IMG/VR virus record: IMGVR_UViG_3300008259_002957
Length of the DNA: 64,000 nucleotides
Strand: one strand, 5' to 3'
Source: a virus
Taxonomy: Duplodnaviria > Caudoviricetes
Shown piece by piece: positions 23,617 through 60,705 of the stretch. The number at the start of each line of letters is the position of its first letter. The stretch's first letter is position 1. The translations under genes were made by a program, and so were the position numbers. Below the pieces are notes generated by a model that saw only the letters and a program-made list of their open reading frames with translations, did no database searches and was not told the DNA's origin.

Positions 23617-23636
23617 TAAATAATTTAAATTATTTA
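23617..23636. promoter_or_regulatory. Face-to-face TAAATA pair at a divergent junction
   Basis: TAAATA on + at 23617-23622; TATTTA (TAAATA on -) at 23631-23636. Confidence 0.5.
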
Positions 23637-23648
23637 TGTAGGTATAAT

Positions 23649-24440
23649 ATGATAGAATTTTATAATGACAAACCTCTTTTATTTCGAAGTGAATTAGTTA
23701 ATAAAACACTAAATTGGTATTCTACAGATTCAAAAGACCTGTTTAAACAACAATCTAAAGATTTTAAAAAAAATCATGAACACGAAATTGTTTATAAATT
23801 TAACAGTCTGGGGCATAGAACAAAAGAAATCAGCGACCTAAATCGAGACTTTTTATTAACATTTGGGTGTAGTTATACCGAAGGTGTCGGACTAAACACT
23901 GATAAAATCTGGAATGATCGAGTTTCTAAAGATCTCAAATTAGATTTATACAATTGTGCTTTAGAAGCAAGCGGTATGGATGTGCAATATTATAATGCAA
24001 CATTATGGAAAAACAGTAAACTTCCTATTCCAAAATTGGTTATTGTACAATGGCCTCAAAAAGCTAGAAAACAATTTGGCCTTCACAGACATGACCATAT
24101 TGAATTGCGAGACATGACGTCGCCATCGACCAAAGATGGAGTATGGTGGGGGCGTAGATATCTGCTTGATGTAGGTGAAATGTACTTAAACAACTTTATG
24201 TGGTTTGAAAATTTTAATAATATATGGCAATCCATGAACGTTCCAGTACTAAACTTTACCTGGGACGACGATGATTTAGAAGTTATATTAAAGAGAAGTA
24301 AATATAAAATATGGGCTATCGTACCAGATACGCTTGACAAGGCCAGAGACAACGGACACGACGGTCCGGAATTTCATAGAGGTACAGCAGAACAGTTATT
24401 AGAAATAATGAAATTACCCAACTTCACGTACAAGATCTAA
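23649..24440 (+). CDS. SGNH/GDSL-fold protein
   Basis: LLTFGCSYTEGVG; C-terminal RDNGHDGPEFH. ATG 23649 (AGGT upstream) is preferred over the longer ORF that overlaps the opposite-strand gene. Confidence 0.6.
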   Translation: MIEFYNDKPLLFRSELVNKTLNWYSTDSKDLFKQQSKDFKKNHEHEIVYKFNSLGHRTKEISDLNRDFLLTFGCSYTEGVGLNTDKIWNDRVSKDLKLDLYNCALEASGMDVQYYNATLWKNSKLPIPKLVIVQWPQKARKQFGLHRHDHIELRDMTSPSTKDGVWWGRRYLLDVGEMYLNNFMWFENFNNIWQSMNVPVLNFTWDDDDLEVILKRSKYKIWAIVPDTLDKARDNGHDGPEFHRGTAEQLLEIMKLPNFTYKI

Positions 24441-25394
24441 CGTGCAACAATGGAAACAACCTCCGAGCGTTCTAGCATGACGTAACGGTAGCATAGCACA
24501 TTCTATACCGTGTGCTTCTAATGCTTTGCGTGTGGGTTCTTGATGTTTTTCTAATACTACTAGATTGGGATTTACACTAAACAGATTAACATTCCAAGTC
24601 CAAATACTGCTATTGCACAATCCTGGATAATGACCTACATCAACAGGTTCTGGTGCCCATACGATGTCCCATTTATTAAACGGCGCAGGTAACATATCAC
24701 GATTTTTAATTCTACTGGGATTTGCAAGTAAAAGTCCTTCTCTTAAAAATGCAACAGTGCTATCAATATGCATATAAGAATAAACTTTTTCTAATGTATG
24801 AACTTTAACATCGTTTCCTACAAATTCTTGTAAGTATTTTGCACCTGCTTTATTTCCACTATTACTTACTAAGTAAAGCAACTGGTCGTTTGCACGTATG
24901 ACATTTGCAGCATCAAACTTAGGAGCAATTTCAGTTAATGCAAGTTGATCAGGATCGCCGATGCAATCTTCGTTATACATGTCGTCTTTTTGATAATTTT
25001 CTGCTATTGTAAAATTGTTACCAAGATGTTCAACAATATGTAAAAATTCTTGTTCTCTAGCACGTAAACTCATTGGAGTTGCTAGTGCAGTGTTTTTATA
25101 AACAAACACACTGTCTCTAGGACAATAATTGTAGTATCCTGTTGGAACTCTGTTTGGGCGTTTAACTTCTACCCCTTCGCCTTTTAAAAAATTGACAAAC
25201 GTGTCTAAATCTTCGTTGCTTTCTTCTACAACTTGTTTTGGATAAGGCCTGGATTTTACAGTATCAACAGATTTTTTATCTGCATAATTTACTACCCGTA
25301 AGCTTTTATCCATTGTAGGAATTTGTGCATATTCGGGAACTCCGACAATTACTTTTTTGAGTGGATCCCACTCGTTGGTGCTATAAATACTCAT
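24414..25394 (-). CDS. Amidinotransferase (glycine / scyllo-inosamine-phosphate amidinotransferase family), copy 1
   Basis: NEWDPLKKVIVG; YCPRD; FDAAN; HIDST; GGCFHCCT (catalytic His and Cys present). Confidence 0.9.
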   Translation of the reverse strand: MSIYSTNEWDPLKKVIVGVPEYAQIPTMDKSLRVVNYADKKSVDTVKSRPYPKQVVEESNEDLDTFVNFLKGEGVEVKRPNRVPTGYYNYCPRDSVFVYKNTALATPMSLRAREQEFLHIVEHLGNNFTIAENYQKDDMYNEDCIGDPDQLALTEIAPKFDAANVIRANDQLLYLVSNSGNKAGAKYLQEFVGNDVKVHTLEKVYSYMHIDSTVAFLREGLLLANPSRIKNRDMLPAPFNKWDIVWAPEPVDVGHYPGLCNSSIWTWNVNLFSVNPNLVVLEKHQEPTRKALEAHGIECAMLPLRHARTLGGCFHCCTLDLVREVG

Positions 25395-25404
25395 ACAATA
25401 TTTA
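25382..25404. promoter_or_regulatory. Late promoter pair: TATAAATA (+) and TAAATA (-) 4 nt before ATG 25394
   Basis: + octamer at 25382-25389 upstream of AAGGAG/ATG 25415; the - strand reads TAAATA-TTGT-ATG. Confidence 0.65.
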
Positions 25405-25414
25405 AGGAGTTTTT

Positions 25415-26194
25415 ATGTCTCGTCTTTTCACATTTGGTTGTAGTTTCACACAATATGGTTGGCCAACATGGGCAGATATAATTGCATACGACAAAGATGT
25501 AGAATACTACAATTATGCGATTGCAGGGTTAGGAAATGTTGGTATTGCTCACAGAATTTTAGAGGCAGATCTAAAACACAAATTTCAAGACGGTGACGAA
25601 ATTTTTATTTTATGGTCAAGTTGGAGTAGAGAAGATAGAGTTAAAGATGCGGCATGGATTGGCCGTGGATCGGTATTAACTTATAACAGTCATCATTATG
25701 ATAAATCGTTTCTTAAAAAATATTGGGATTTTGATAACGATGTTGTTAAAAACTCTACTGCTATAATAACAACAAATCGTTTATTTAAAAATTTTATCAC
25801 ATGGCAAGCAAGTGCATTTGAATTTTTTACTACCGAAGGACTCAATTTAACTAAACACAGGAATGGCAATATTATTAATCTTTATAAAAACGAATTACCC
25901 AACTTAACAGTTATTCCTTGTGAAACTAAAAAAAATTCGTTTAAAATAGTACGAGATTCGCATCCTGATGTTTTAGGACATCTAAATTTAGCAACTCGAA
26001 TATACAAAGACTTAGATTTAACAATTAAAGATAAAACAAAAAATACATTTATACGTCTACAGCACGACATAGAAAATTCAATAAAAGAAACTGATAATTT
26101 TCAACAAGTACTTGACAAAATTACTGTCTTAATGAAATTAAATTACAAAAAACTTTTTTCTATAAGAAATTATCCTTCATTGAACGAAGATTGA
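25415..26194 (+). CDS. SGNH/GDSL-fold protein
   Basis: RLFTFGCSFT; NYAIAGLGN; C-terminal RDSHPDVLGH. Confidence 0.6.
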   Translation: MSRLFTFGCSFTQYGWPTWADIIAYDKDVEYYNYAIAGLGNVGIAHRILEADLKHKFQDGDEIFILWSSWSREDRVKDAAWIGRGSVLTYNSHHYDKSFLKKYWDFDNDVVKNSTAIITTNRLFKNFITWQASAFEFFTTEGLNLTKHRNGNIINLYKNELPNLTVIPCETKKNSFKIVRDSHPDVLGHLNLATRIYKDLDLTIKDKTKNTFIRLQHDIENSIKETDNFQQVLDKITVLMKLNYKKLFSIRNYPSLNED

Positions 26195-26764
26195 CATATT
26201 TCTTAAATCAGGATAATCTTGCCAACTCCATGTTTTTGGAATTGTGTTTATTGCTGTATCTAATTTATCTAAGCCTAATTGAGCAGTTTCTGGAGTCATA
26301 TAATAATGATACCCAAAACTGTCGATGTCTTGTTCCGCCCAAGGTAGATCACGAGATCTACCATCATAACTTAGTTTTATTAAATCATGATATGCAGATT
26401 CGTTGTCAGTTAAAATCATTCCACCTCTCCCAAGACTTAAATGTTTTTTAAACTGAAAACTCAAACACATAAACGTATTAGGTATATAACTATTTTGTTT
26501 CCATAATACAGCAGCATCATAAATATTGTCTGATAGTTTATAATAATGTTCCCAAGGATTGTCTTGCCATTGCCACCTAATGTTTAATTTTTTTGCAGTC
26601 ATGGGCACTGATAAATAAGTACGATTTGGAATTGATATATTTTGAATTTTGTTATAAATTAAACACATCTCAATTGCGTGAGTACAGCAATCTGTTGAAA
26701 CAGCAAATTTTGAACCAAAGAATTTTGCAATTTTATTTTCAAATTTATTAATTATATCGAACAT
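26177..26764 (-). CDS. Compact DegT/DnrJ/EryC1/StrS-family PLP aminotransferase
   Basis: FAVSTDCCTHAI; YDAA; LSFQFKKHLSLGRGGMILTD; GYHYYM. Only 195 aa. Confidence 0.8.
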   Translation of the reverse strand: MFDIINKFENKIAKFFGSKFAVSTDCCTHAIEMCLIYNKIQNISIPNRTYLSVPMTAKKLNIRWQWQDNPWEHYYKLSDNIYDAAVLWKQNSYIPNTFMCLSFQFKKHLSLGRGGMILTDNESAYHDLIKLSYDGRSRDLPWAEQDIDSFGYHYYMTPETAQLGLDKLDTAINTIPKTWSWQDYPDLRNMSIFVQ

Positions 26765-26768
26765 AATA

Positions 26769-26776
26769 TATTTATA
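26769..26776 (-). promoter_or_regulatory. Late promoter TATAAATA 4 nt before ATG 26764
   Basis: The - strand reads TATAAATA-TATT-ATG. Confidence 0.7.
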
Positions 26777-26787
26777 GAAAGGTTTAT

Positions 26788-31063: not shown

Positions 31064-31658
31064 TTTAGATGATGTGGCGTTTTGGATGGATGCTATTAGA
31101 AATGCAGAAAATCAATACAGTGTTCTTGAAAGTTTTTGGAAAGGACAACTAAAAAGTAAGGTGTGGTTAATTGAAAATCTGTCTAAATTAGTTCAAACTC
31201 AAAACAATCGTGTTGTAATCCACGGTGGGTGGAATGGTGTCTTATCTGCACTGCTCTTTAATTCAACAATCGATATAAAACACATTACAAGTTTAGATAT
31301 AGATGTTTCCTGCGAAGAAGTTGCTGCAATGATTAATAAACGATACGAAATAGAAAATCGATTTTGTGCAGTAACAGCAGATATGTCTGTTTATCAGTAT
31401 CAAGAAATTCCGTCTATTGTAATTAACACTAGTACAGAACATATTACTCAAGAACAATATAATACTTGGTTAAGCAATGTTCCCAAAGACACATTAGTTG
31501 TAATACAAAACAACAACTATCATAGTTTACCCGAACATATAAGAACTTTTGATACTGTTGATGACTTTGCTGATTCATCACAGTTAAACAACATACTTTG
31601 TAAAGATGTATTAGAATTGCCTCTTTACAACAGATTTTTAATTATTGGCTACAAATGA
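31053..31658 (+). CDS. Class I SAM-dependent methyltransferase-fold protein (paralog of 62377..63294)
   Basis: VVIHGGWNG; SLDID; VINTSTEH; N-terminal FWKGQLKSKVWL. Confidence 0.6.
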   Translation: MKVDLDDVAFWMDAIRNAENQYSVLESFWKGQLKSKVWLIENLSKLVQTQNNRVVIHGGWNGVLSALLFNSTIDIKHITSLDIDVSCEEVAAMINKRYEIENRFCAVTADMSVYQYQEIPSIVINTSTEHITQEQYNTWLSNVPKDTLVVIQNNNYHSLPEHIRTFDTVDDFADSSQLNNILCKDVLELPLYNRFLIIGYK

Positions 31659-33049
31659 CGTGGTATGAATCAACAAATCCTGAAGTAAAAAAATGGCAAG
31701 ATTTTATCGAAGATCGTGCTACTAAAACTTTTTGTGTGTTGCCTTGGATACATCTTGCCACAAGACCAAATGGCGATATGAGATTGTGTTGTAGTGCAAA
31801 TGCAAGTGGTGCAGGTGTAGACCATACTCTTGGAATTGTAAAGACTGCTACAGGCGAACATTTGAATTTTTCTAACACTACTCCAACGGAGGCATGGAAC
31901 AGTGAATACATGCGCGGTGTTAGAAAAACCATGATGGATGAAAAAATACCAGTTAGTTGCTCTAAATGTTTTTCAGAAGAATCAAAGGGAGTTGCTAGTA
32001 AAAGAATATGGGAAACTGCTACGTGGTTAGAACGTGGTATTGATCCGGTAAATCTTTTAAACGAAACCAAATCAGATGGTCGTGTTCCTAACAAACTAGC
32101 ATATCTTGATTTGCGTTTAGGTCATACTTGCAACATCAAATGCGTGATGTGCAGTCCGCACGACAGTAGTCAATGGGTCAAAGATTGGAAACAATTATTT
32201 CCGCAAATAACTCACGACGTAGTAAAAAATCAACTACAATGGGATAAAGAAAGTTTTGATAACCGATGGCACGAAAATCCGGAGTTTTGGAAACAACTTT
32301 ACAAGCAAATTCCTAATTTAAAAGAAGTTTATTTTGCTGGTGGCGAACCACTTATGATTCGCGAACATAAAAAGTTTATAGAAGAAATAATACGTCAAGG
32401 CTATAACTATGATATCATCTTGCGTTATAACACAAACGGAATATTAGTCGACGAAGAATTAATTGAACTGTGGAAACACTTTAAACTTGTAAAAGTTGGT
32501 GTTAGCATTGATGCAGTAGGTAAACGTAATAACTATATTAGATTTCCTACTGACTGGAGTAAGGTTGAAAAAAATCTGCATATGTTAGATAATACTCCGG
32601 ATAATATTCAGCCATCGATTGCAACAGCCGTACAAATTTTTAATATTAAACATCTTCCAGATTTTATCTATTGGAAACTATCTAGCAATTTTAGAAAAGT
32701 TAATAAACAAGTCAACAACGACATTGAAGTAGGCGGCGGCCTTGTTAATATGCATCTATTATACATTCCTACTTTTTTAAGTATACAAATGTTACCCAAA
32801 GCGGACAAAGATGAGATAAAAGACAGTTTTATGCGGTTTAAAGGTTGGCTTGAAGTTAATCATAATAGCAGTGATTTTTGGCAGGGTAATCCGTACGGAT
32901 GGCGTCGTTGGGAAGGTATGTTAAATCATATGTATGCTGAAGATCAATCACATTTACTTCCGTCATTTAAGGAATACGTAAATAAACTAGATTCAATAAG
33001 AAAAATAAACGCTCGTGAAGTGTTTCCTGAATTAGCACATTTACTATGA
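31655..33049 (+). CDS. Radical SAM protein (type A)
   Basis: FCVLPWIHLATRPNG..RLCC...CSKC; CNIKCVMC; FAGGEP. Confidence 0.9.
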   Translation: MTWYESTNPEVKKWQDFIEDRATKTFCVLPWIHLATRPNGDMRLCCSANASGAGVDHTLGIVKTATGEHLNFSNTTPTEAWNSEYMRGVRKTMMDEKIPVSCSKCFSEESKGVASKRIWETATWLERGIDPVNLLNETKSDGRVPNKLAYLDLRLGHTCNIKCVMCSPHDSSQWVKDWKQLFPQITHDVVKNQLQWDKESFDNRWHENPEFWKQLYKQIPNLKEVYFAGGEPLMIREHKKFIEEIIRQGYNYDIILRYNTNGILVDEELIELWKHFKLVKVGVSIDAVGKRNNYIRFPTDWSKVEKNLHMLDNTPDNIQPSIATAVQIFNIKHLPDFIYWKLSSNFRKVNKQVNNDIEVGGGLVNMHLLYIPTFLSIQMLPKADKDEIKDSFMRFKGWLEVNHNSSDFWQGNPYGWRRWEGMLNHMYAEDQSHLLPSFKEYVNKLDSIRKINAREVFPELAHLL

Positions 33050-34026
33050 TTGTAAAAATAGAAAACAACCAGCAGCCCAACGTATTACGAATAGAGTATA
33101 TGTTAGGAAACACTTGTAATCAAAAATGTAATTATTGCTTTCCAGGCAGTAACGAAGGCGATCATCCGTGGCCCGACTTTGAAACTGTTAAGAAAAATCT
33201 ATCTCATCTATTAGATTATTACAAAAAAAATGGCAAAGAAGTTTTTAATATATTTTTTGTAGGCGGCGAACCAACACTCTGGGACGGTTTTTTGCCACTT
33301 TGCGAATATCTAAAATCAAAATATAAGTGTATACTTGAAATTAGCACCAACGGAACTCGCGGTGTAATATGGTGGACCAAGGCAGGCAGAGTTTTAGACC
33401 ATGTTAATATTAGTGTGCATCATGAATATGCAAGAATACAAAAGATAAAAACCCTAGCAGATTTTTTATATGAACTAGGAGTTTTTGTTAATGTTGATGT
33501 ATTGATGGATCCTGCCGCGTTTGAAAAATGTGTTAAACTAGTTGAAGACTTATCTGATAGTAAATGTGCATGGCCTGTTCTTGCTAAAGTTGTACATTAC
33601 AACGGCGAAAGTCGATATACATCAGAACAACAAAAATACTTTATTGAACCTATAAAAAGATATCCTAGCAAAGAATGGTTTGCTGCAACAGTTAAAAAAC
33701 CCAGGACAGAAGTTTATATTACAAACAACAGCAATACAGTTGTTACTACAACGTCTGACAGTTATCTAACCTTAAACAAACTAAATTATTTCAAAGATTG
33801 GAATTGTAATCTAGGTGTTGATTTGTTAAAAATCTTTTATGATGGCAGAATAACAGGAAACTGTCAACAAAAATTGTTTGGCTCGGATACTTATCACAAC
33901 TTGTACGAGCCAAATTTTGACAAAACATTTTTCCCTGACATTTTACCTGTTGTATGCACAAAGTCTATTTGCGGTTGCAACGGTGAAATAATTTTAAAAA
34001 AGTGGATAAGCAATGATAACCTTTGA
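33046..34026 (+). CDS. Radical SAM protein (type B)
   Basis: CNQKCNYC; FVGGEP; C-terminal FKDWNC...GNC...VCTKSICGC. Confidence 0.9.
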   Translation: MIVKIENNQQPNVLRIEYMLGNTCNQKCNYCFPGSNEGDHPWPDFETVKKNLSHLLDYYKKNGKEVFNIFFVGGEPTLWDGFLPLCEYLKSKYKCILEISTNGTRGVIWWTKAGRVLDHVNISVHHEYARIQKIKTLADFLYELGVFVNVDVLMDPAAFEKCVKLVEDLSDSKCAWPVLAKVVHYNGESRYTSEQQKYFIEPIKRYPSKEWFAATVKKPRTEVYITNNSNTVVTTTSDSYLTLNKLNYFKDWNCNLGVDLLKIFYDGRITGNCQQKLFGSDTYHNLYEPNFDKTFFPDILPVVCTKSICGCNGEIILKKWISNDNL

Positions 34027-36263: not shown

Positions 36264-36990
36264 ATGCTTTCCTATAACTGTCTGCTAATAGTTTGCAATA
36301 ATCCTCTTTGCGATCGCCCACAATGCCGTGAACAATAAGATGTTTACGTTCGTCTGAACTAAAGTTTATAACAGAATGATTTTTCAAGATATTAACTAAA
36401 AATGCTCTGCCGTTGTTAAATGGTACCACACCAGAATCCTCAATAGTCATAAAACAGTTTGGTGGGTGATCTATAGCAATATTAATCGGCAGTGGGTGAT
36501 TCCAAATTTGTCCCCAGTCTATTCCGGACCCTTGATCGTTGTGTGGAGAAATGTATCCTTTGGGACCTAGTTTCATAAATCTTACTCTTGACAAATTTTC
36601 AAAAGGCAACGATTCACAAAACTTTTTTATTTTTGTAGTTTTTTTACCTAAGTAGGTCCATTGATATTCGGGTTCAGACTTATATCCGTATGTGGTCCAG
36701 TGATTGGTTTTTTCAACATCAATGCCGTGAAGTGTGCAACTTGACCATCCTTGATGTGTGCCTTCGCCGGTCTTTTCGTCTCGGTGTGACACGTAACTTG
36801 TTGCAGCATATCTTTCGTCAAACATAAAGTCTAGCGTATCAATATCAAGATCTAGTTGTAACCAGTCTCCGTGACTACCTTGCAACACCCATAATGCAAT
36901 GTCTTCGTCATTCATATTGTCGTTGGGTAACGAATTAAGTTTACAATTATAAATTCTATTTTTTTCAAAAAATAATTCTGCTTCGTTCAT
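36232..36990 (-). CDS. Fe(II)/2OG oxygenase, aspartyl/asparaginyl beta-hydroxylase-like
   Basis: RVRFMKLGPKGYISPHND (HxD)...HSVIN...RKHLIVHG. ATG 36990 chosen because TAAATA lies 4 nt upstream. Confidence 0.8.
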   Translation of the reverse strand: MNEAELFFEKNRIYNCKLNSLPNDNMNDEDIALWVLQGSHGDWLQLDLDIDTLDFMFDERYAATSYVSHRDEKTGEGTHQGWSSCTLHGIDVEKTNHWTTYGYKSEPEYQWTYLGKKTTKIKKFCESLPFENLSRVRFMKLGPKGYISPHNDQGSGIDWGQIWNHPLPINIAIDHPPNCFMTIEDSGVVPFNNGRAFLVNILKNHSVINFSSDERKHLIVHGIVGDRKEDYCKLLADSYRKAYALQREKLKI

Positions 36991-36994
36991 ACTA

Positions 36995-37014
36995 TATTTA
37001 CTGTACAATAAATA
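36995..37014. promoter_or_regulatory. Back-to-back TAAATA pair, each 4-5 nt before an ATG
   Basis: - strand: TAAATA-TAGT-ATG (36990); + strand: TAAATA-TCACT-ATG (37020). Confidence 0.7.
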
Positions 37015-37019
37015 TCACT

Positions 37020-38063
37020 ATGTTTAGATATGATGAACTACAAAGTATTCATTTAGAAATTACAAATAGATGCCAGGCCAGTTGTCCAATGTGCAGTCGA
37101 AATTATAGAGGAAGCATAGATAATCCTTTATTACAAATCTCAGATTGGACCATTGACGACTTTAAAGAAATATTAGATAGCAATACACTAAACATAATTA
37201 AAAAGATTGAATTTTGTGGTAACTTTGGCGATCCATTAATTAATCAAGATTTTCATTTAATGACAGATTATTTAAAAAACTTTAACGTATTTGCTGACAT
37301 ACATACAAACGGAAGTTTACGCAGTCAAGATTTTTGGAAAATCTTACCGCAGCATTTGCCTGATCATAGAGTAGTATTTGGAATTGACGGCTTAGAAGAC
37401 ACACATTCTGTTTATCGTAGAGGAACAGATTTTAGAAAAATTCTTGATAATGCAACTGCTTTTATCGATGCTGGCGGTATAGCAGAATGGAGTTTTATTA
37501 GATTTAAGCATAATGAACATCAAGTAGATCAAGCACGAGACCTTGCAGAAAAAATTGGTTTTGAAAAATTTTATACAAAAGACAGCAGTAGATTTGCCTT
37601 TGAAAAAGAATACATTGTGTTAGATAAAAATGAAAAAACAATTGATCGATTATATCCGCCAGCAATAACAAAAGTTAATTATTTTGATCCAACGGATATT
37701 GTAGCAGTTAGCGAAACAATTCAAAACACTGAAATCGTTTGTTATGCTAAACATAAAAAAGAAATTTATATTGATGCTCACAAGCGTATTATGCCTTGTT
37801 GTTTTTTAGCAGCCATACCATATGATTATGAGAGAACTACTGATAATTTATTTGCAGCAAAACAACACATAAAAAAACAATACAGTGATTTGATTTATGA
37901 CTTAGGTAATACCGACGCTAAACAAGGCATTCAAAAAGTAATTGAATCAAACTCGTTTCAAACTGTATGGCAAAAATATTGGAACATTAAAAAATTATGG
38001 ACCTGTGCTAGAGCATGTGGCAACACATTTAGTAAACCTGTGGATCAAGTTAACAACAAATAG
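37020..38063 (+). CDS. Radical SAM protein (type C, C-terminal twitch-like)
   Basis: HLEITNRCQASCPMC; CGNFGDP; IYIDA...PCC...CARAC. Confidence 0.9.
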   Translation: MFRYDELQSIHLEITNRCQASCPMCSRNYRGSIDNPLLQISDWTIDDFKEILDSNTLNIIKKIEFCGNFGDPLINQDFHLMTDYLKNFNVFADIHTNGSLRSQDFWKILPQHLPDHRVVFGIDGLEDTHSVYRRGTDFRKILDNATAFIDAGGIAEWSFIRFKHNEHQVDQARDLAEKIGFEKFYTKDSSRFAFEKEYIVLDKNEKTIDRLYPPAITKVNYFDPTDIVAVSETIQNTEIVCYAKHKKEIYIDAHKRIMPCCFLAAIPYDYERTTDNLFAAKQHIKKQYSDLIYDLGNTDAKQGIQKVIESNSFQTVWQKYWNIKKLWTCARACGNTFSKPVDQVNNK

Positions 38064-42057: not shown

Positions 42058-42739
42058 GTTTTAATCCCCAGGCTCTTTCTAAACACCAAAAACAATTACC
42101 GCAAATAGGAACAGATTGATAGGGTTTATAATTAGTATAATTTAAATCTTCAAACTCGCCTTCGCAACTTCTAGTTATATCAAATAAATCTACTATTCCG
42201 TTTTCTGCATATCTTCGAACTATCCAGTCTTTTTGAACATTTATAAATGGATGGTGTACAGGAATACCCATATGTATTAAAACGGGAGGTATGACTGGAA
42301 TATTTCTCTCTGGAAGAGCACCGTTGAATATTTCGCTAGGATTTAAATTAACACCAGCATACCATGCATCTAGTTTGTATTTGTGTGCTATGTATTCGTT
42401 ATATGCTCTAAGTATTATTCTGTTACCTGATTTTAATTTTCCATATTCGTCTGGAATTAATGGACTAACAGGTTCTTCTAATTCTGGTGGTACAAAGTTT
42501 GTTAAATGTTCAATACGATTGGTATAGCGGCGTTGAAACCAGTGTACTACGTCTCGTGCAATATATTCTTGCCACGGTCTAGTTTTCCACATTCGTATTT
42601 GTGTAGTAAAGTAAATATCAGCAGATGTATTTTCCATTATGAAATAAGCAAGTAGTGCGCTATCTGCACCACCGCTTAAACTAATACCAATCCTTTGCCA
42701 ATCTTTATTTAAAGGTATTTCCACACCATCTACGATCAT
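42044..42739 (-). CDS. QueC-like PP-loop ATPase (adenine nucleotide alpha-hydrolase superfamily)
   Basis: ISLSGGADSALL; C-terminal TRSCE...CGNCFWCLER (Zn-site pattern of QueC). Confidence 0.75.
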   Translation of the reverse strand: MIVDGVEIPLNKDWQRIGISLSGGADSALLAYFIMENTSADIYFTTQIRMWKTRPWQEYIARDVVHWFQRRYTNRIEHLTNFVPPELEEPVSPLIPDEYGKLKSGNRIILRAYNEYIAHKYKLDAWYAGVNLNPSEIFNGALPERNIPVIPPVLIHMGIPVHHPFINVQKDWIVRRYAENGIVDLFDITRSCEGEFEDLNYTNYKPYQSVPICGNCFWCLERAWGLKHALK

Positions 42740-42743
42740 ACTC

Positions 42744-42779
42744 TATTTAACCTTGCGCTAAAATAGTATACACTAAATA
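42744..42779. promoter_or_regulatory. Back-to-back TAAATA pair, each 4-5 nt before an ATG
   Basis: - strand: TAAATA-GAGT-ATG (42739); + strand: TAAATA-TCTTT-ATG (42785). Confidence 0.7.
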
Positions 42780-42784
42780 TCTTT

Positions 42785-43447
42785 ATGATACAACCAACAA
42801 ATTTAATTGTAAGACAAGAATTAATAGAAAAGATGGCAAGTTTCGACGGCGATGAAATGAAAGTGGTCATCAATGAGCCAACTGGAGATTTTTTTTACGA
42901 TCCTTGGCGTATTAAACCTGAATTTATTGGAACACCGTTTGAAGCGGCACTAAACTTGTTACCCGACGACATTGGAGAAGCACGTATTATTACACTTGAA
43001 AGTGGACGTTGCTACTTTTCGCATAGTGATATTGATGACAGGTATCATTTAAACTTAACAGGCGATTGTGCAGCATTAATTAACATCGAAACACAACAGT
43101 CATATTTTTTAAAACCAGACGGAATTTGGTATGACATGGACGCTGGATCTTTACATTCGGCAGTAAACTTTGGACAACATGATCGTAAGCAGTTGGTTGT
43201 AAGAAAGTTATTAACAAAAAATAAATTAAAAATACCTATAAATGTTTTTATTAGAGCAACAGGAAAAAATGCAAGATTTGTTTTTGACAATACAATTAGT
43301 CCTTGGCTTAACCGTGCAAATAAAAGAGGTATTATAACCGACTTTGAACATAGTCTATCAAAAGTCTATTTAAAAGTCGAAGAAGAATTTAGCAGCGAGT
43401 TAGAAAAAATAATTCCTGAAGAGTTTGAATATGACTTCGATTATTAA
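42785..43447 (+). CDS. Fe(II)/2OG oxygenase, AspH-like
   Basis: EARIITL...SHSDIDDRYH (HxD)...LHSAVNFG...RKQLVV. Confidence 0.75.
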   Translation: MIQPTNLIVRQELIEKMASFDGDEMKVVINEPTGDFFYDPWRIKPEFIGTPFEAALNLLPDDIGEARIITLESGRCYFSHSDIDDRYHLNLTGDCAALINIETQQSYFLKPDGIWYDMDAGSLHSAVNFGQHDRKQLVVRKLLTKNKLKIPINVFIRATGKNARFVFDNTISPWLNRANKRGIITDFEHSLSKVYLKVEEEFSSELEKIIPEEFEYDFDY

Positions 43448-46729: not shown

Positions 46730-47337
46730 AAGTAGCAATTACTGGACACACCGCAGGCATTGGAAAAGAATTATACAATTATTTTAGTAGAAAAAATGCC
46801 GAAGTAATTGGCATGAGTCGCAGCAACGGCTACGACTTAGAAACGTCGGTTGACAGCATAATTGAAAACGCAAAAGACTGTGATATTTTCATTAACAATG
46901 CATATAGAGACGGGAAACAATTAGAACTGCTAAACGGCTTGTACAAGCATGTTCATAGAATAGTTGTTTGCGGATCTGTAAGTAGATTCTATCCTGAACT
47001 TATTTTAACAGATTATGTACATGACAAGCAAGCATTAGCAGAGCGTTGCAAGATGTTAAGTTTAGCACCAGACGGAGTTGCTAATATTTTACATCTTGAT
47101 TTAAGTTTTGTTGAATCAACAAATGTTAATCTAAACGATCCGTTAACTTTTACAAGCGACAACTTTATTAAGTATACGGAAATAGTTTCTGCCGTTGATT
47201 TTTGGTTGCATAATCCTAAAATTAGACAGATGGAATTTGTTTGGAAATTAACGCCATTTGTTTATGACCAATTAAAACGAGCAAATCCAGATCATACAGA
47301 ACTTGACAAACTTTATAGAGAAGTTTTAGATCTATAG
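46726..47337 (+). CDS. Short SDR-like oxidoreductase (tandem paralog)
   Basis: ITGHTAGIG; SRSNGYDL shared with the previous gene; FINNA; YVHDK. Confidence 0.75.
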   Translation: MKVAITGHTAGIGKELYNYFSRKNAEVIGMSRSNGYDLETSVDSIIENAKDCDIFINNAYRDGKQLELLNGLYKHVHRIVVCGSVSRFYPELILTDYVHDKQALAERCKMLSLAPDGVANILHLDLSFVESTNVNLNDPLTFTSDNFIKYTEIVSAVDFWLHNPKIRQMEFVWKLTPFVYDQLKRANPDHTELDKLYREVLDL

Positions 47338-47921: not shown

Positions 47922-48598
47922 GCTTCATCCATTGCATCGGCAGGAAAGTCTGTTTTAAAACTTTCAAATGCTAACATTTGTATATCAAAAAAAGAAGTAG
48001 GTTTGTCTACATCAATACCTAACCTAGTCATTTTTGGTAACAGGTCATTTCTTCTATTAATACTAATATGACTCATTACATCTGTCAAACTAATTGTTTT
48101 GTCATTTTTGTCATACGCAAAAAAATAATTAATGCTTTTTAGTTTTCCGTCTACAACAAAGTAACTGCTTGGGTGCATACTGTATTTGTAAATTCCGAGA
48201 CTGGCATGTGCTTGAATAATTTCCAACATTTGTTCTTGCCAGTTGGGTAAAACTTTATCATAATTATTTTGAGAACACTGTGCTTGTTCCCAAAAATCCG
48301 TCCCATCTATATCAAAGTATATTTTTTTGTTTATGTGATCTACAGTGTCGATTGTTGGAACATGCTGGGGATAATGTCTGGCCATAATAGTTAAAAATTT
48401 AATTTCTCTGTGCCACTTTTCTTCCATTAACCGTGGATCAACAACTTCATTGTGTCCGCTGTGATAATTCTCGTCGTTGTAATACCATTGACAAAAAGTT
48501 TTGCGATCTTTTGAAATTAGGCTAGTGTATATAAGATTGTTTCTGCACAATCCTTTTCCTGGTACATTATTATAATAGTACTCAAACTGTGTATTCAT
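47888..48598 (-). CDS. Kinase-like fold protein with non-canonical catalytic loop (paralog of 43431..44111)
   Basis: LISKDRKTFC; HREIKF; VPTIDTVD; GIYKYSMHPSS; KSINYF. Confidence 0.45.
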   Translation of the reverse strand: MNTQFEYYYNNVPGKGLCRNNLIYTSLISKDRKTFCQWYYNDENYHSGHNEVVDPRLMEEKWHREIKFLTIMARHYPQHVPTIDTVDHINKKIYFDIDGTDFWEQAQCSQNNYDKVLPNWQEQMLEIIQAHASLGIYKYSMHPSSYFVVDGKLKSINYFFAYDKNDKTISLTDVMSHISINRRNDLLPKMTRLGIDVDKPTSFFDIQMLAFESFKTDFPADAMDEACSIYKHTTTI

Positions 48599-48603
48599 AA
48601 CAA

Positions 48604-48619
48604 TAATTAGCGATAAGTA
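48604..48619. promoter_or_regulatory. Back-to-back variant late elements (TAATTA on -, TAAGTA on +), each 5 nt before an ATG
   Basis: - strand: TAATTA-TTGTT-ATG (48598); + strand: TAAGTA-TGTTT-ATG (48625). Confidence 0.55.
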
Positions 48620-48624
48620 TGTTT

Positions 48625-49440
48625 ATGATTAGAGGAATTGGCACAAAACCGTATATCGACTTGGATCCTTACTTGGATATAGAAGGATTTAAAAATCTGC
48701 ATCCAGAAATTGCCAAGGGTTTTGCACTAGCAAGAGACTATGCAAAAGAAGGCACATGGATGACTCCTGGGTTTGATTGGAAAGATGCAAGTTATATTGT
48801 CAACTGGAAACCAATTTATAGTGCAGTTGAAGAATATCTAGCACTACCAGAAACACATCCTATACGTGTCACAGGCGATCCTATGTATTTTACAGATTTA
48901 AAAGATTTTAGAAATCGCAACATTTTTACACGTTACTTAAAAACCACAATGGGTGCAAATGACCCTTACACTTATTATTTTTTATGGGATCAGGGTGATT
49001 GGAATGAACGCAATGCTGAACGCCAAAAAACTGTAGAGTCGAAGTACTTTCCGGGTGTTGTTAAATGGGTGGAAGAATTACAGCACACAGGAATCATCGA
49101 CAGAATCGGAAGAGTAATATTTTTTCATTGCGATCACAACGGCAGAGCATTTGAGCATAGAGACTTGGACGCACGTAACGGTGTGTTAGGCGATCATCAA
49201 TATACTCCACACAACAATGAATTTATTCACATTCGTTATAGAACAAAGCGTGGATTCTATATTTGGGATCCGGATACAGAAAACAAATATTATATAAACG
49301 CTAATGCTGCATTTTGGAATGATCAAGACTGGCACGGCGGAGAAGAAAGCAAAGAAATTGAGTATGGAATGAGAATTGACTGTAAGTTTAGCAATTCATT
49401 TCGCGAACAATTGGGTATTGATCATTTGGAGCACTATTGA
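48625..49440 (+). CDS. Fe(II)/2OG oxygenase-fold protein
   Basis: GRVIFF...FEHRD (HxD)...DWHGG...RID. Confidence 0.65.
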   Translation: MIRGIGTKPYIDLDPYLDIEGFKNLHPEIAKGFALARDYAKEGTWMTPGFDWKDASYIVNWKPIYSAVEEYLALPETHPIRVTGDPMYFTDLKDFRNRNIFTRYLKTTMGANDPYTYYFLWDQGDWNERNAERQKTVESKYFPGVVKWVEELQHTGIIDRIGRVIFFHCDHNGRAFEHRDLDARNGVLGDHQYTPHNNEFIHIRYRTKRGFYIWDPDTENKYYINANAAFWNDQDWHGGEESKEIEYGMRIDCKFSNSFREQLGIDHLEHY

Positions 49441-49931: not shown

Positions 49932-51072
49932 AACATATTGTCCGTTGCCATGGGTACACTCGAGTTGGCAAAATGGAAATACTATACTTCCTTGTTGTGG
50001 ATTTATGGACGGCGGAAGGTTCAATAAAACATCCGTATTTGAAAAATTGTATTTTGACAACGAAATGGATCAACTTCGGGCAGATATGCTTGCTGGTAAA
50101 ACTATCAAAGGTTGCGAACAATGCTATGATCAAGAAAACAACAATTTAGATAGTATGCGTACTAGAGCGTTAGACAAATACGGAATTGTAACAACAATAG
50201 ATTTACAAGATTTGCATATTATGTTTGATAATCTATGCAATTTAAAATGTAGAATGTGTGCAAGTTCAAACAGTCATTTATGGCACGTAGAAGAAAAAGA
50301 GTTATACGGAGAGGCATTTTCTTCTAGCAAATATTTTCAAAATACATTTTATAAAGAAGTAAATTTAAAAAACATTAAAGAAATTAATCTTACAGGCGGG
50401 GAACCACTTTATAGTCCTCATTTTATTCCTTTCTTAAAAAAATTAAAAGAAGATGCAGATACAAGCCAAATTTATATTGATTTTTTTACTAATGGAACAA
50501 TACAGCCCACTGAAGAAATTCTTAGTATATTAAAAGAGTTTAAAAAAGTAACAATTACTATTAGCATAGATGCAATAGGAAAATTAAACGACTTTATTAG
50601 AAAAAACAGTAATTTTGATGAAATAAAAAATAATTTAGATTTTTATTATAGATTATTGTCAGATAAAATTTCAGTAAATGTTTTGACTACAGTTGGAATT
50701 TACAATGCTATCTATGTCGAAGATATTAAAAACTATTTTAGTTTAAATTATCCAAAGTTTAATTGGGGTTACGATGTAATACAGTATCCAGAATATTTAA
50801 GTATAAGACACATGCCAACTAACTTAAAAGATATCTACAAAGAGTATATCAAGGAAGAACCGTTGATATCTTATATGTACGACAGTGGCAAAGATTTATT
50901 TAAACATTTTTTATATTCTCATTATAAACTTAATAAAATAAGAAATGAAGATTTTACTGAGAACAACATTTTGTTAAATTATATTAAAAATAATAATACT
51001 GACATTTACGAAGAAGAAACCAAAAAGTATTACAAAAATATGATTAACGAAATTCGTGGATCAAGAGATTAA
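49924..51072 (+). CDS. Radical SAM protein (type A)
   Basis: YCPLPW...LPCC...CEQC; CNLKCRMC; LTGGEP. Confidence 0.9.
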   Translation: MSKTYCPLPWVHSSWQNGNTILPCCGFMDGGRFNKTSVFEKLYFDNEMDQLRADMLAGKTIKGCEQCYDQENNNLDSMRTRALDKYGIVTTIDLQDLHIMFDNLCNLKCRMCASSNSHLWHVEEKELYGEAFSSSKYFQNTFYKEVNLKNIKEINLTGGEPLYSPHFIPFLKKLKEDADTSQIYIDFFTNGTIQPTEEILSILKEFKKVTITISIDAIGKLNDFIRKNSNFDEIKNNLDFYYRLLSDKISVNVLTTVGIYNAIYVEDIKNYFSLNYPKFNWGYDVIQYPEYLSIRHMPTNLKDIYKEYIKEEPLISYMYDSGKDLFKHFLYSHYKLNKIRNEDFTENNILLNYIKNNNTDIYEEETKKYYKNMINEIRGSRD

Positions 51073-52049
51073 TTTGTATATTTTTTTAAAACATATTCTG
51101 GTGTTTTTAAAAAACTAGTGTCTTTGTCAGAACACATGTCGCATTCTCCTATTTCGCAGTATTTTGTTTCATCAAAAAAATCAATTTCGTCGTTGTTATA
51201 ATTTTCTAAATTTATAGGTTTATAATTTAAATATTTTTGCCAATCTGGGTCGTTTAATAAATTATGATGATTTAAAAATCTATTTAATGTACCCAAAGAA
51301 GAACACTTGTATAATTTTTTATCAATCAAAAAACTACACATATCACTGGTGCAGCCGTTTTGATAAGATTCGGCAGGATTGTTTGTTTTAAAGGGTTTAG
51401 GAATATTATCAATTAATTGATAATTTTGTTTAAATGTGCTTTGCTCTCTGTAATGAACAAACGTTTTATTATAAAATACCTGTTCAGTATCTTCAATGTA
51501 ATCATAAAAGTTTTGTCTTTTGTCTAACCACTCTTGATACAAGATATCGTTTTTTTTATTTTCTATATCGAATAGATTTTTATAAAAATCGGACACATTT
51601 CCACTGGGCAAATTCACAGCATCTGCTAAAAGTTTAAAATTTTGTTTAACTTTATTTGAAAGTGTTTTATCTTCAAATCCTGAAAAATGGTCACATACAA
51701 AAACACTAACATCAAACTGTTTTATTAACGCAACTAGTTCATTGAGTTTTTTATCAATAAGTGTTCCATTGGTTGGTAGTAAAAGTACAGCATCTGGATC
51801 TATGCTTTTTATAAATTTAAATATTTCTGTAATTCGATCTAAATACAGTAACGGTTCACCACCTGAAGTACCATAATAGATTATATCAAATTTTTCTTTG
51901 ACTAATTTAATGCCTGTTAATATGTCATCCAATGTTGGATCATAGTTTTTTGTTTGCAACACATGGCTTCTTGCATCACAATGATTGCAGGCTAAGTTAC
52001 AATAAGCACCGCAGTAAATATCTAAAAATCTCAGGTATGGTTGACTCAT
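51069..52049 (-). CDS. Radical SAM protein (distinct subtype, C-terminal Cys cluster)
   Basis: CNLACNHC; SGGEP; CTSDMC...YKC...CDMC. ATG 52049 chosen because TAAATA lies 5 nt upstream. Confidence 0.9.
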   Translation of the reverse strand: MSQPYLRFLDIYCGAYCNLACNHCDARSHVLQTKNYDPTLDDILTGIKLVKEKFDIIYYGTSGGEPLLYLDRITEIFKFIKSIDPDAVLLLPTNGTLIDKKLNELVALIKQFDVSVFVCDHFSGFEDKTLSNKVKQNFKLLADAVNLPSGNVSDFYKNLFDIENKKNDILYQEWLDKRQNFYDYIEDTEQVFYNKTFVHYREQSTFKQNYQLIDNIPKPFKTNNPAESYQNGCTSDMCSFLIDKKLYKCSSLGTLNRFLNHHNLLNDPDWQKYLNYKPINLENYNNDEIDFFDETKYCEIGECDMCSDKDTSFLKTPEYVLKKYTN

Positions 52050-52054
52050 TGTAA

Positions 52055-52104
52055 TATTTAGTAGTATCACAATTGAGTAACTATGTTTTTGTTTGCAGTA
52101 AATA
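52055..52104. promoter_or_regulatory. Back-to-back TAAATA pair
   Basis: - strand: TAAATA-TTACA-ATG (52049); + strand: TAAATA at 52099-52104, upstream of AGGAG/ATG 52131. Confidence 0.65.
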
Positions 52105-57393: not shown

Positions 57394-59240
57394 TGAAAAG
57401 TGTGTATTTGTTTCAAGTAAATTATCAAATGGGTTACGGAAACTTTTCTAGTCAAAGTTTACCATATAGTATTGCTGCGGTCTGGTCATATGCAGAACAG
57501 TTTGATATAGTAAAACAAAACTTTGATGTAAAGGATTGTTTTTTTAAACGTGAACCTGTTGATTTGGTTATCACTAAAATACATGATCCAGAAATTTGTC
57601 TCTTTAGTAACTATATTTGGAACGAACAATACAATTTTCAATTGGCAAAAAAAATAAAAGATAAATGGCCAAACTGTTTAATTGTGTTTGGCGGCCCGCA
57701 GGTTGGCGAAAAAGCAGGACACAAACTTTTACAAAAAAAGTTTATAGATAGTATTATAATTAACGAAGGCGAAAAGTCTTTGTATTCGTTATTAACTGAC
57801 TACATTACTACTGGAATAGTTAAAGAAACATATCAATTGCATCAACGTGTTGATGTTGAAGAAATGCCAAGTCCTTATATAAACAGCAACATTTTAAACA
57901 AGTTAGTCCAAGAAAATAAAAATGTAAAATTTTCAACAACCATAGAAACAAATAGAGGCTGTCCTTTTGCTTGTACATTCTGTGACTGGGGTAGTCTAAC
58001 TCAAAGTAAAATTAAAAAATTTAATTTAGAAAAAGTATTTGCTGAGTTAGATTGGGTTGCAAAAAATAAAATAGAATACATTTATATTGCTGATGCTAAC
58101 TTTGGTGTTTTTTATGAACGTGACAAACTTATTGTAGAATATCTAGCCAAGTTAAAAACAGAAACAGGCTATCCTCACGGAGTTACTGCTACTTGGTATA
58201 AAAACAGTGCTGAAAAAACTATTGAATTAGTTAAAATACTGCACAGTGTAGGACTTAATAGAGGTCTTACATTAAGTGTTCAAAGTATGAATGACGATAC
58301 GTTAACAAACATTAAACGTAAAAATATGGAAATATCTCAGTTATCACAGATGTACAAAGAATGTGACAAACAAGGTGTGACATATTATACAGAGTTTATT
58401 TTGGGTATGCCATACGAAACTAAACAAAGTTGGAGAGAAGGTCTTTGCGAAGCCATACAAGCAGGATGTCATTATTTCTTAGATGTGTTTCCCTTAGAAA
58501 TACTTAAAAACAGTGAGATGGCCACTGAAGTACTTGATCACGAAATGGCAGTGGAAACATATTACACAGTGTTTAATGGTCAGTTGACTAACATTCCAGA
58601 AATTCACAACTACGTAATTGCAACAAAATACATGAACAAATCGGATTACATTGATTCTTGGTTGTGGTATTGGTTAATAATGAACTTTCATAATTATAAC
58701 TGGACGCAAGTATTGGCTAAATTTGCAAACAAACATCTTGGTATTGATTATATTGACTTTTATGAAAACTTTTTTAATAATTGTATTTTAAAAGAAGATT
58801 TTTTTCTATCACTGTATAATAAACAAAAAACCGATTTAGAAGAATTCTTTTGGAATAAAAAAATTACAGACGTTTTTGTTAATGACAATGTTACAGTTAA
58901 TTACACTCAAATTGAATGGCATAAAAATAGAAACACGGTTCAAACTAAAATTGAACAGTGGGCTAAAAAATACTTTTCTACAGTTGACAACAATTTGTTA
59001 AACGACCTACTCAATTTTAATAAATCATACACAACAGACATTTCACGAAAACATGCTATAAGTGGTGAGTTTAATTATAATTTAAACGAGTTTTGTAATT
59101 TTAACGACAAGTTAATACAAAATAAAACAACATATAGATTTGATATATCTATACCTTGGGACACAGATATAGACTTTAAAGAAAAATTGTTCTATAAAAA
59201 CAGAAGTGGTTTTAGTGTAGCAAAAATAACAAAGTTATGA
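57393..59240 (+). CDS. Cobalamin-binding radical SAM protein (class B methyltransferase-like)
   Basis: N-terminal LPYSIA...FSNYIWN...IVFGGP; TNRGCPFACTFCDW; ADANFG; EFILGMP.ET. Confidence 0.9.
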   Translation: MKSVYLFQVNYQMGYGNFSSQSLPYSIAAVWSYAEQFDIVKQNFDVKDCFFKREPVDLVITKIHDPEICLFSNYIWNEQYNFQLAKKIKDKWPNCLIVFGGPQVGEKAGHKLLQKKFIDSIIINEGEKSLYSLLTDYITTGIVKETYQLHQRVDVEEMPSPYINSNILNKLVQENKNVKFSTTIETNRGCPFACTFCDWGSLTQSKIKKFNLEKVFAELDWVAKNKIEYIYIADANFGVFYERDKLIVEYLAKLKTETGYPHGVTATWYKNSAEKTIELVKILHSVGLNRGLTLSVQSMNDDTLTNIKRKNMEISQLSQMYKECDKQGVTYYTEFILGMPYETKQSWREGLCEAIQAGCHYFLDVFPLEILKNSEMATEVLDHEMAVETYYTVFNGQLTNIPEIHNYVIATKYMNKSDYIDSWLWYWLIMNFHNYNWTQVLAKFANKHLGIDYIDFYENFFNNCILKEDFFLSLYNKQKTDLEEFFWNKKITDVFVNDNVTVNYTQIEWHKNRNTVQTKIEQWAKKYFSTVDNNLLNDLLNFNKSYTTDISRKHAISGEFNYNLNEFCNFNDKLIQNKTTYRFDISIPWDTDIDFKEKLFYKNRSGFSVAKITKL

Positions 59241-60680
59241 ATACAGCGGAATAAATTTTGTTATTCCGTTGACATTTACTTCCAACCAACTGTCTGGGTT
59301 TGATGTATTAGCAGGAGATTTAGAAGTTTCTCCTACAACAGTAACATCTTTAATTACACTTTTTAAATGCCCATCTGAATTTATAGACAATGCTTCGGTT
59401 AATTCGCCTGCATTGTTAGAAACTTTTATTGAAAAATGACCCGGTACCTTTCCTGACGAAACAATTGCATTGCTAGAAACAGACGTTTCGATTAAAGCAA
59501 CTGGTACACACGAAATACTATAATTAGTGCCACTTTGAGCACCAAATATAATACTTTGTATTCCGTCTCCGGGTTGTACAGGCTCTGGGTTAGAAATAGA
59601 TCCTCTAGTTTTAATAAGAGCAAGAGTTCCTGGGAGATTACTGTCTTTTGACACACAAATAGTCAACGGGCCGTAATCGTCGTTGATGTCTTTGTCTGAA
59701 ACAAATAATGCAGTACCGCTACTTCCAACATCTTTATCACCTACTTGAAAGTTATTAAATCTTTGAATATCCGATACAACGTTTCCGAAAAAATTTCCAT
59801 AAAACGTATTAGTTTGATAATCGTAACTAATTCCGTTGGTTTCGGATAACAAGTTTGCTTTAATAATCTGTATATCAGTATCTAAAATAACTTCACCGAG
59901 ATTGTTATAAACATTTCCTGCAAACGTTCCTACAAACTCGCCGACGATAGAATCAGTTACTACAATATCTTCAGCATTGATTTTTTTAACAACTAGTTCG
60001 TTTAACTCTGCAGAGTTAGTAAAAGAATCGTACATAAGATTCCCATTTGCATTATAAACATTGCCTTTGACATTTCCGTAGATGAGGTTATTTACTTCGA
60101 GATCATCTAACCGTAAACTGTTGCTATTTGAATCATAAACAGTATCGCCTGCGTGATCAACAATATTGCCTAAAAAATTACCAATGAATATTTTGTTTTC
60201 CGAATCAAGTACCATGGTTCCGTTTTCGTCAGCAACATTTCCAAAAAATATTCTTTGATTTTTATCAACAATTATATTTCCAAATTCGTCAACTACGTTT
60301 CCAACAACATTACCATGGAATAATTTTTCATTCTTGTCGACAACCAAATTTCCAATATCATCAACAATATTTCCAAGAACATTACCGTAGAATATTTGTT
60401 GTGAGTTGTCGATGACTATATTTCCTGAGTCGTCAAGAACATTACCGGTAACATTACCGTAGAATGTTTTTTCTGAAATATTAAGAACTACATTTCCTAA
60501 GTCGTCGATTACATTTCCAACAAAATTTCCGTGGAAAGTTTTGTTTTCGTAGTCAACTATGATGTAATCGTCAACATCGACTATGTTGGCTTTGATAATA
60601 CCTCTAAAGCTATCTACTATAAGAGTACTGTCCATACCTTCAATATTAATTCTATATGACGCACCATCGTAAAGTTCCAT
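59235..60680 (-). CDS. Repeat-rich fibre-like protein
   Basis: About 24-aa GN-rich repeats (KTFYGNVTGNVLDDSGNIVIDNSQ); GGAGAG SD and a TAAATA element upstream. Confidence 0.6.
   Translation of the reverse strand: MELYDGASYRINIEGMDSTLIVDSFRGIIKANIVDVDDYIIVDYENKTFHGNFVGNVIDDLGNVVLNISEKTFYGNVTGNVLDDSGNIVIDNSQQIFYGNVLGNIVDDIGNLVVDKNEKLFHGNVVGNVVDEFGNIIVDKNQRIFFGNVADENGTMVLDSENKIFIGNFLGNIVDHAGDTVYDSNSNSLRLDDLEVNNLIYGNVKGNVYNANGNLMYDSFTNSAELNELVVKKINAEDIVVTDSIVGEFVGTFAGNVYNNLGEVILDTDIQIIKANLLSETNGISYDYQTNTFYGNFFGNVVSDIQRFNNFQVGDKDVGSSGTALFVSDKDINDDYGPLTICVSKDSNLPGTLALIKTRGSISNPEPVQPGDGIQSIIFGAQSGTNYSISCVPVALIETSVSSNAIVSSGKVPGHFSIKVSNNAGELTEALSINSDGHLKSVIKDVTVVGETSKSPANTSNPDSWLEVNVNGITKFIPLYS
60125..60545 (-). 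repeat. Six tandem coding repeats of about 72 nt (24 aa; one shortened), boundaries approximate
   Basis: Consensus K.F.GN(V/F).GN(V/I).D..GN.V.D; further degenerate copies continue toward the C-terminus. Confidence 0.75.
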
Positions 60681-60699
60681 GTTTCTCTCCTAGACACTT

Positions 60700-60705
60700 T
60701 ATTTA
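60700..60705 (-). promoter_or_regulatory. Late promoter-like TAAATA for the fibre-like gene
   Basis: TATTTA on + strand; SD at 60690-60685; ATG 60680. Confidence 0.5.

Follow-up and report, generated by a model that had tools for sequence, protein, structure and literature searches.

A probable T4-type late promoter core next to start codons and predicted leaderless genes in an uncultured giant phage

The enzyme island and its divergent junctions

The DNA considered here is a stretch of 64,000 nucleotides (nt), hereafter the window, from the IMG/VR virus record IMGVR_UViG_3300008259_002957 (Duplodnaviria; Caudoviricetes). Positions 1-63797 of the window are the reverse strand of a 113,432-bp virus contig with an estimated completeness of about 32%, which is a fragment of an uncultured freshwater giant phage related to T4. 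The contig encodes baseplate genes, a gp55-like sigma factor and homologs of SbcD and SbcC; tail-fibre-like and virion proteins are encoded in the left part of the window, and genes for sugar-modifying and radical SAM enzymes form an island at about 23.6-60.7 kb. Judged by the late sigma factor, the closest cultured phages are Pseudomonas phage PA5oct (47% identity) and Agrobacterium phage Atu_ph07 (42%). The element of interest is the hexamer TAAATA, which in this island stands four or five nucleotides (N4 or N5) before the ATG of genes that have no Shine-Dalgarno (SD) sequence. Boxes so placed, here called fused, are probably gp55-type late promoters joined to start codons, which would give leaderless mRNAs.

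The first-pass annotation had named nine fused boxes and had placed the element at every divergent junction of the island. All nine sites are present, seven as exact TAAATA and two as one-mismatch variants, and the element occurs at eight of the eight junctions (J1 to J8), as an exact box in seven and as one-mismatch boxes only at J6. The features are as follows (aa, amino acids; ORF, open reading frame).

J1, 23600..23651, minus strand: TAAATA 23631-23636, AAGGAG 23607-23612, TTG start 23599
J1, 23600..23651, plus strand: TAAATA 23617-23622, 26-nt leader, ATG 23649
J2, 25392..25404, minus strand: TAAATA 25399-25404, N4, ATG 25394 of a 326-aa gene, no SD
J2, 25382..25417, plus strand: leadered partner as read from the sequence, TATAAATA 25382-25389, AAGGAG 25404-25409, ATG 25415 (25 nt)
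J3, 26762..26776, minus strand: TATAAATA (full T4 consensus), N4, ATG 26764 of a 195-aa DegT-like ORF, no SD
J3, plus strand: start 26788, no box
J4, 36988..37000, minus strand: TAAATA, N4, ATG 36990 of a 252-aa Asp/Asn-hydroxylase-like gene
J4, 37009..37022, plus strand: TAAATA, N5, ATG 37020 of a 347-aa radical SAM gene whose homologs begin at the same ATG
J5, 42737..42749, minus strand: TAAATA, N4, ATG 42739 of a 231-aa gene (42044-42739) with a weak QueC-like match
J5, 42774..42787, plus strand: TAAATA, N5, ATG 42785 of a 220-aa gene
J6, 48596..48609, minus strand: variant TAATTA 48604-48609, N5, ATG 48598 of a 236-aa gene
J6, 48614..48627, plus strand: variant TAAGTA 48614-48619, N5, ATG 48625, a conserved start (MIR...)
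J7, 52047..52060, minus strand: TAAATA, N5, ATG 52049 of a 326-aa gene
J7, plus strand: start 52083, no box
J8, 60678..60705, minus strand: leadered late-type promoter, TAAATA 60700-60705, 19-nt leader, AGGAG 60687-60691, ATG 60680
J8, 60714..60752, plus strand: sigma70-like promoter, TTGACA 60714-60719, 17 nt, TACTAT 60737-60742, 7 nt, ATG 60750 in frame with a 547-aa ORF

The fused boxes of the island head transcription units at divergent junctions of 20-45 bp, often as back-to-back pairs, and 26788(+) and 52083(+) are the junction genes without a box. The octamer TATAAATA is complete only at 25382 and 26769. At J2 the two promoters are opposed and interlocked, the TATAAATA of the plus-strand gene lying inside the first codons of the minus-strand gene; the plus-strand transcript is predicted to begin at 25395, right beside the minus-strand ATG at 25394, so that there would be no overlap between the two RNAs. 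The boxes of J4 (that of the minus strand at 36995-37000) form a 20-bp near-palindrome, TATTTAnTGTACAnTAAATA, at window positions 36995-37014 around a TGTACA centre, which could serve as a binding site for a dimeric regulator. At J3, the 195-aa ORF (26177-26764, minus strand) matches only positions 165-236 of the 360-position profile of DegT/DnrJ/EryC1 aminotransferases and, despite its perfect TATAAATA-N4-ATG, may be a shortened or remnant aminotransferase.

The start codons on which these distances depend are backed by the N-termini of orthologs for 25394, 37020, 42785, 48625 and 52049. In the last case, Mx(K/Q)PY is the N-terminus of five homologs at the aligned ATG, so the true start is taken as ATG 52049 and not GTG 52070; for the plus-strand gene of J6 the conserved start in relatives is the second ATG, 48625. 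For 42739 the conserved CAT in the junctions of relatives is only suggestive, because the partner gene is homologous in just one of 55 loci; the conserved CAT of 48598 is stronger, with a homologous partner in at least 62 of 80 loci. No orthologs of the gene at 36990 were found in IMG/VR, and an in-frame TTG at 37008, six codons upstream, is an alternative start candidate for it. The aligned ortholog starts are all ATG, which is weakly informative in that ATG was part of the search pattern.

Spacing of the box at gene starts

For the contig, the gene-start set consisted of 93 first ATGs of long ORFs among 3562 ATGs on both strands. Relatives were hundreds of IMG/VR loci retrieved with four junction genes, which yielded 1049 non-redundant gene starts, and a complete relative of 357,559 bp assembled from 18 stretches (G001), with 426 starts among 11,565 ATGs. 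Phages T4 (168.9 kb, with starts defined as ORFs of at least 60 aa) and PA5oct (286.8 kb) were used as controls with the same method.

Of the 12 TAAATA-N4/5-ATG sites on the two strands of the 113-kb contig, nine supply a long ORF with its first ATG (Fisher p 8e-13). Counted from N0 to N12, the spacers at gene starts are 0, 0, 0, 0, 4, 5, 0, 0, 0, 0, 0, 0 and 0, no start having a box at N0-3 or N6-12, and they are followed by a scattered leadered class at N13-31. About a tenth of the gene starts thus carry the box four or five nucleotides before the ATG and without an SD. The bare counts of the pattern (five TAAATA-N4-ATG and four TAAATA-N5-ATG) lie within the range of dinucleotide shuffles; what was borne out of the enrichment over shuffled sequence expected by the first-pass annotation is therefore the peak at gene starts, not an excess of the pattern itself. 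The hexamer is also the most enriched one in the 45 nt upstream of all starts, above the SD hexamers (21 observed, 1.8 expected, p 6e-16).

That annotation had conceded that TAAATA is common in AT-rich DNA and had rested its case on the fixed spacing, a position which the N4/N5-only peak upholds. The hexamer is in fact rarer than its permutations: it has 108 copies on both strands, fewer than any of the 14 hexamers of the same composition (166-354 copies), and it appears to be avoided outside promoter positions. None of these 14 hexamers marks gene starts at N4/5 in the contig. One-mismatch variants of the box precede none or one gene start each, none of them individually significant, and TAAATC, TAAATG and TAAATT, which keep a sigma70-like nTAAAT, give first-ATG starts at 0 of 18 sites. 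All six letters of the box therefore seem to matter, and the two variant boxes of J6 were accepted only because of the comparative data from relatives.

Start-site features

The same annotation had seen no room for an SD at the fused-box genes, and in the relatives none of 86 proximal boxes is accompanied by an SD-like 4-mer at -18 to -4, whereas about one start in four overall has one. A pyrimidine precedes the ATG at 141 of the 152 proximal-box starts (93%) and at 54% of all starts. RNA polymerase favours a purine as +1 with a pyrimidine just before it, and the pyrimidine ahead of the fused starts fits this start-site preference.

Few starts have the box at N8-12, be it in the contig, the relatives or the complete relative, and leaders of that class would be too short for an SD. 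The near-empty interval fits two workable designs, in which the leader either is missing altogether or is of sufficient length for an SD. One family does have its box in this interval, at N10 (TTAAATA, about 10 nt, ATG; loci L008, L014, L020, L042, L066, L067, L079 and L084); either its annotated start is wrong, or a leader of 4-5 nt is tolerated.

Conservation in relatives

Among the 1049 starts of the relatives, TAARTA occurs 53 times at N4, 99 times at N5, 10 times at N6 and six times at N7, is rare at N8-21 and forms a broad hump at N22-32. Within one family N4 can replace N5 and vice versa, and at orthologous junctions the letters of the spacer drift while box and distance are kept. At J2, relatives with 69-75% aa identity keep CCTTAAATA-N4/5-ATG with variable spacer letters. 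Of 34 distinct orthologous sequences of the gene at 42785 (45-58% aa identity), 33 lack an SD and carry the box, 15 of them at N4 and 18 at N5; of 54 such sequences for the gene at 48625, 43 have TAARTA at N4/5. On either side of J6, relatives mostly carry TAAGTA or TAAATA at N5, and several have TAATTA on the 48598 side.

The same families also exist in an alternative form, with the box at N22-33 together with an SD. Where their members are internal to operons, the box is absent, as in 35 of 48 sequences of the family of 25394, 34 of 53 of the radical SAM family of 37020 and five of five of the 52049 family. The box thus tracks the first position of a transcription unit and not the gene or its translation. 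J6 is stable in evolution: at least 62 of 80 loci retain its partner gene. At J5, a mirrored CAT-N4/5-TATTTA is seen across the junction in relatives, and the partner is homologous to the 42044-42739 gene in one of 55 loci (L166-L220); the comparison indicates that the partner gene turns over while the bidirectional box pair upstream of the 42785 homolog is retained. That single genes move on a portable, invertible promoter-plus-start cassette of about 13 nt, as the first-pass annotation proposed, is a conjecture; as a six-base AT-rich box can easily arise, it need not travel with a gene.

In the complete relative, 23 of 30 TAAATA-N4/5-ATG sites coincide with the first ATG of a called gene (p 9e-28), with a pyrimidine at -1 in 21 of the 23 fused sites, and the leadered class extends over N13-30 with its peak at N18. 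Most of its fused boxes are located at co-directional gaps and not at divergent junctions, and they precede genes for the large terminase, tail-tube-like, baseplate wedge, virion and fibre proteins. The division proposed earlier, with leadered structural genes and leaderless enzyme genes, accordingly holds within the present window, in which a box at N13-31 with an SD precedes tail-fibre-like and virion genes, but not in the complete relative, in which the N4/5 box precedes structural and packaging genes. In the controls, the TAAATA-N4/5-ATG sites located at long-ORF starts are 0 of 10 in T4 and 1 of 20 in PA5oct.

Probable identity of the box and proposed mechanism

T4 late transcription is a textbook system. 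Its components include the sigma factor gp55, the co-activator gp33 and the clamp gp45 (PMC2988020). The gp55-like sigma factor that the first-pass annotation had suggested looking for elsewhere in the genome is encoded on the same contig (L005:1261-2085, 274 aa), with matches to phrog_12791 (E 5e-77) and phrog_234 (E 5.6e-22), and its gene adjoins those of the SbcD/SbcC (gp47/gp46) homologs. The T4 late box TATAAATA occupies -13 to -6 (PMC2988020), so that the TAAATA core lies at -11 to -6 with five bases left to +1; the geometry claimed earlier, by which +1 coincides with the A of the ATG at N5 sites, is consistent with this position. No strong conserved -35 block was found in the base counts of the 20 positions upstream of the 86 proximal boxes, and TTGACA is paired with no fused box, the one incidental weak match being TAGACA-N18 at 26764.

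In the mechanism proposed, TAAATA would be the conserved core of the late promoter of this phage (the last six bases of TATAAATA), read by host RNA polymerase carrying the gp55-like sigma factor of the phage. Located 13-31 nt upstream of a start codon, the core would yield a transcript with an ordinary leader and an SD. Located 4-5 nt upstream, it would make the A of the ATG, which is the first purine to follow the pyrimidine-rich spacer, the start of transcription, and the resulting mRNA would be leaderless, beginning with AUG and lacking an SD. This mechanism is probably correct. The box, its fixed spacing, its restriction to gene starts, the missing SD, the conservation and the gp55 homolog are observed and partly support the earlier proposal of leaderless late transcription, of which the reading of the box by gp55, the late timing, the exact 5' ends and the leaderless translation are inferred; the 5' ends are predicted on the A of the AUG from the box geometry and the pyrimidine at -1.

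Several points weigh against it. Many operon-internal genes are also without an SD, so that its absence proves little by itself. While the six-base core is invariant and specific, conservation does not extend to the first two bases of the T4 octamer. No match to gp45 was obtained with PF02916 and the T4 gp45 protein in the contig, three complete relatives or the controls, which makes the search uninformative, and gp33 was not searched. A rigid gap of five nucleotides would put the +1 of N4 sites on the T of the ATG, and a flexibility of one base in the start is needed; starting one base closer at N4 sites is plausible, since N4 and N5 sites alike offer the A of the ATG as the first favoured purine behind a pyrimidine. 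Public RNA consists only of metatranscriptome contigs of about 150 nt inside genes, and 5' ends are thus inferred and not mapped; those for 42044-43447 (42486-42623, 42990-43147 and 43326-43479, small shares of four runs) allow no starts, strands or levels to be read. At two sites outside the window (window coordinates -12609 and -30167) the TAA of the box is the stop codon of the upstream gene. The baseplate wedge gene of the complete relative (145 aa) is similar in length to the gene at -12609 (147 aa) and has an N4 box separate from the upstream stop, which raises the likelihood that the stop-overlapping box at -12609 is genuine, the two genes being matched by length only. Lastly, the counts in relatives are not phylogenetically independent.

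Alternative explanations

The box could be a promoter or operator read by a factor other than gp55, such as host sigma70 acting on a -10 element alone, another phage sigma factor, or a dimeric regulator bound to inverted pairs. Such a reader would suit the near-palindrome of J4, the unconserved first two bases of the octamer, the unsuccessful searches for gp45 (uninformative, as the controls were also negative) and the clear sigma70-type promoters that likewise abut ATGs in the clade. A regulator acting as a dimer agrees poorly, however, with the distance between paired boxes, which varies from 4 to 26 nt among junctions, and with the many boxes that are single; moreover, the box precedes classic late genes. 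Sigma70 needs a T at -7, whereas here the final A is required, variants ending in C, G or T marking no first ATGs, and the reading of nTAAAT by sigma70 is rejected on this ground. Overall, a reader other than gp55 is unlikely.

It is similarly improbable that the box acts in RNA as an A/U-rich, SD-independent ribosome-loading element on leadered transcripts and is not a promoter. A/U-rich translation enhancers are established in bacteria, the distance to the ATG is fixed, the box stands in place of an SD, and a minority of boxes are found within operons at gaps of less than 30 nt (two in the contig and eight in the complete relative). Yet the same hexamer is present at N13-33 before SD-led genes, where action at the start codon is impossible, and a single family swaps the box at N4/5 without an SD for the box at N22-33 with an SD, and lacks the box when operon-internal. 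A gp55-type promoter, rather than a translation signal, is further favoured by the pyrimidine at -1, which fits start-site choice, and by the match of the hexamer to the core of the late box recognised by gp55 in a phage that has a gp55 homolog.

Coincidence in AT-rich DNA and an ORF-calling artefact can practically be dismissed: total counts are within the shuffle range and TAAATA contains a TAA stop, but gene starts fall on 9/12 sites in the contig and 23/30 in the complete relative, hexamers of the same composition do not mark starts, and the layout is conserved in orthologs and missing from T4 and PA5oct. As for the artefact in particular, neither N4 nor N5 brings the TAA of the box into frame with the ATG, and the in-frame distances N3 and N6 are empty in the contig, which rules it out.

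Sigma70-type promoters abutting start codons

The promoter at 60714-60742 in J8 is not isolated in this clade. In the complete relative, 11 gene starts are preceded by TTGACA-N16-18-TAnnnT at N5-7, with the peak at N6, and several of these promoters are TTGACA-N17-TATAAT. Judging from this placement, early or host-type promoters may also give leaderless mRNAs, which suggests a general tendency of the clade towards leaderless expression. The first-pass annotation had hinted at a host that translates leaderless mRNA well, and the sigma70-type promoters that abut ATGs lend some indirect support to this hint. That the whole clade runs a largely leaderless programme from sigma70-type (early) and gp55-type (late) promoters is a tentative idea, and a doubtful one at present. 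If it were true, the host or a translation apparatus remodelled by the phage would initiate efficiently on mRNAs with a 5'-AUG, the phage would have a built-in means of setting protein output in using either a fused box or an SD-bearing leader, and bidirectional units would be dense and easily gained and lost in accessory islands.

Other features of the contig

An ORF of about 4622 aa spans window positions 1-5189 and the upstream part of the contig, and a second giant ORF of at least 2300 aa is found at the contig end. Within the enzyme island, radical SAM genes are located in a run at 31655-35083 and 37020-39133. Convergent genes of the island overlap tail-to-tail by 4-32 nt (26177-26194, 35052-35083, 38045-38063, 47313-47337, 51069-51072 and 59235-59240). 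Such overlaps leave no room for a terminator, and late transcripts of the two strands would therefore collide as antisense RNA.

Relation to known systems

The likeness to T4 extends to an AT-rich box of -10 type only, with the same six-base core and no -35 element, to a gp55-family sigma factor encoded beside gp47/gp46 homologs and to boxes before virion genes on either strand. Unlike in T4, conservation here is limited to the TAAATA core, for which TAAGTA and TAATTA substitute at one junction, and the box is fused at N4/5 to gene starts, as at none of the 10 such sites of T4. PA5oct is likewise a jumbo T4-related myovirus that has a long gp55-like sigma factor beside SbcCD and depends on host RNA polymerase (PMC7318152), but only one of its 20 TAAATA-N4/5-ATG sites is a long-ORF start; the paper on this phage reports sigma70-like promoters and does not contain the word 'leaderless' (PMC7318152).

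In bacteria, -10 elements that abut ORFs and give leaderless mRNAs are known (PMC12340547, PMC3160421). The fused boxes resemble them in having a -10-type element a few bases before the start, no SD and, as predicted here, an AUG at the 5' end of the mRNA. The bacterial promoters are read by the housekeeping sigma factor of a cellular genome, whereas the present box is probably of phage gp55 type; a sigma70-type counterpart, TTGACA-N17-TAnnnT-N6-ATG, is also found in this clade. No paper joining 'leaderless' with TATAAATA or with T4-type late promoters was found in the literature, the papers on AR9 and on a methylophage that did come up being irrelevant. Each part is known, and the combination of a T4-type late box with a leaderless start appears to be new; the layout itself is well supported in silico.

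Significance

If fusion of the late box to the start codon is routine in a widespread group of uncultured giant phages, gene callers and promoter finders that expect an SD will mis-start or miss such genes. A promoter-plus-start signal of at most 13 bases would explain how divergent junctions of only 20-45 bp can drive two genes. The hosts, or the ribosomes of infected cells, would have to handle mRNAs with a 5'-AUG well, which would be a clue both to the host and to late translational control.

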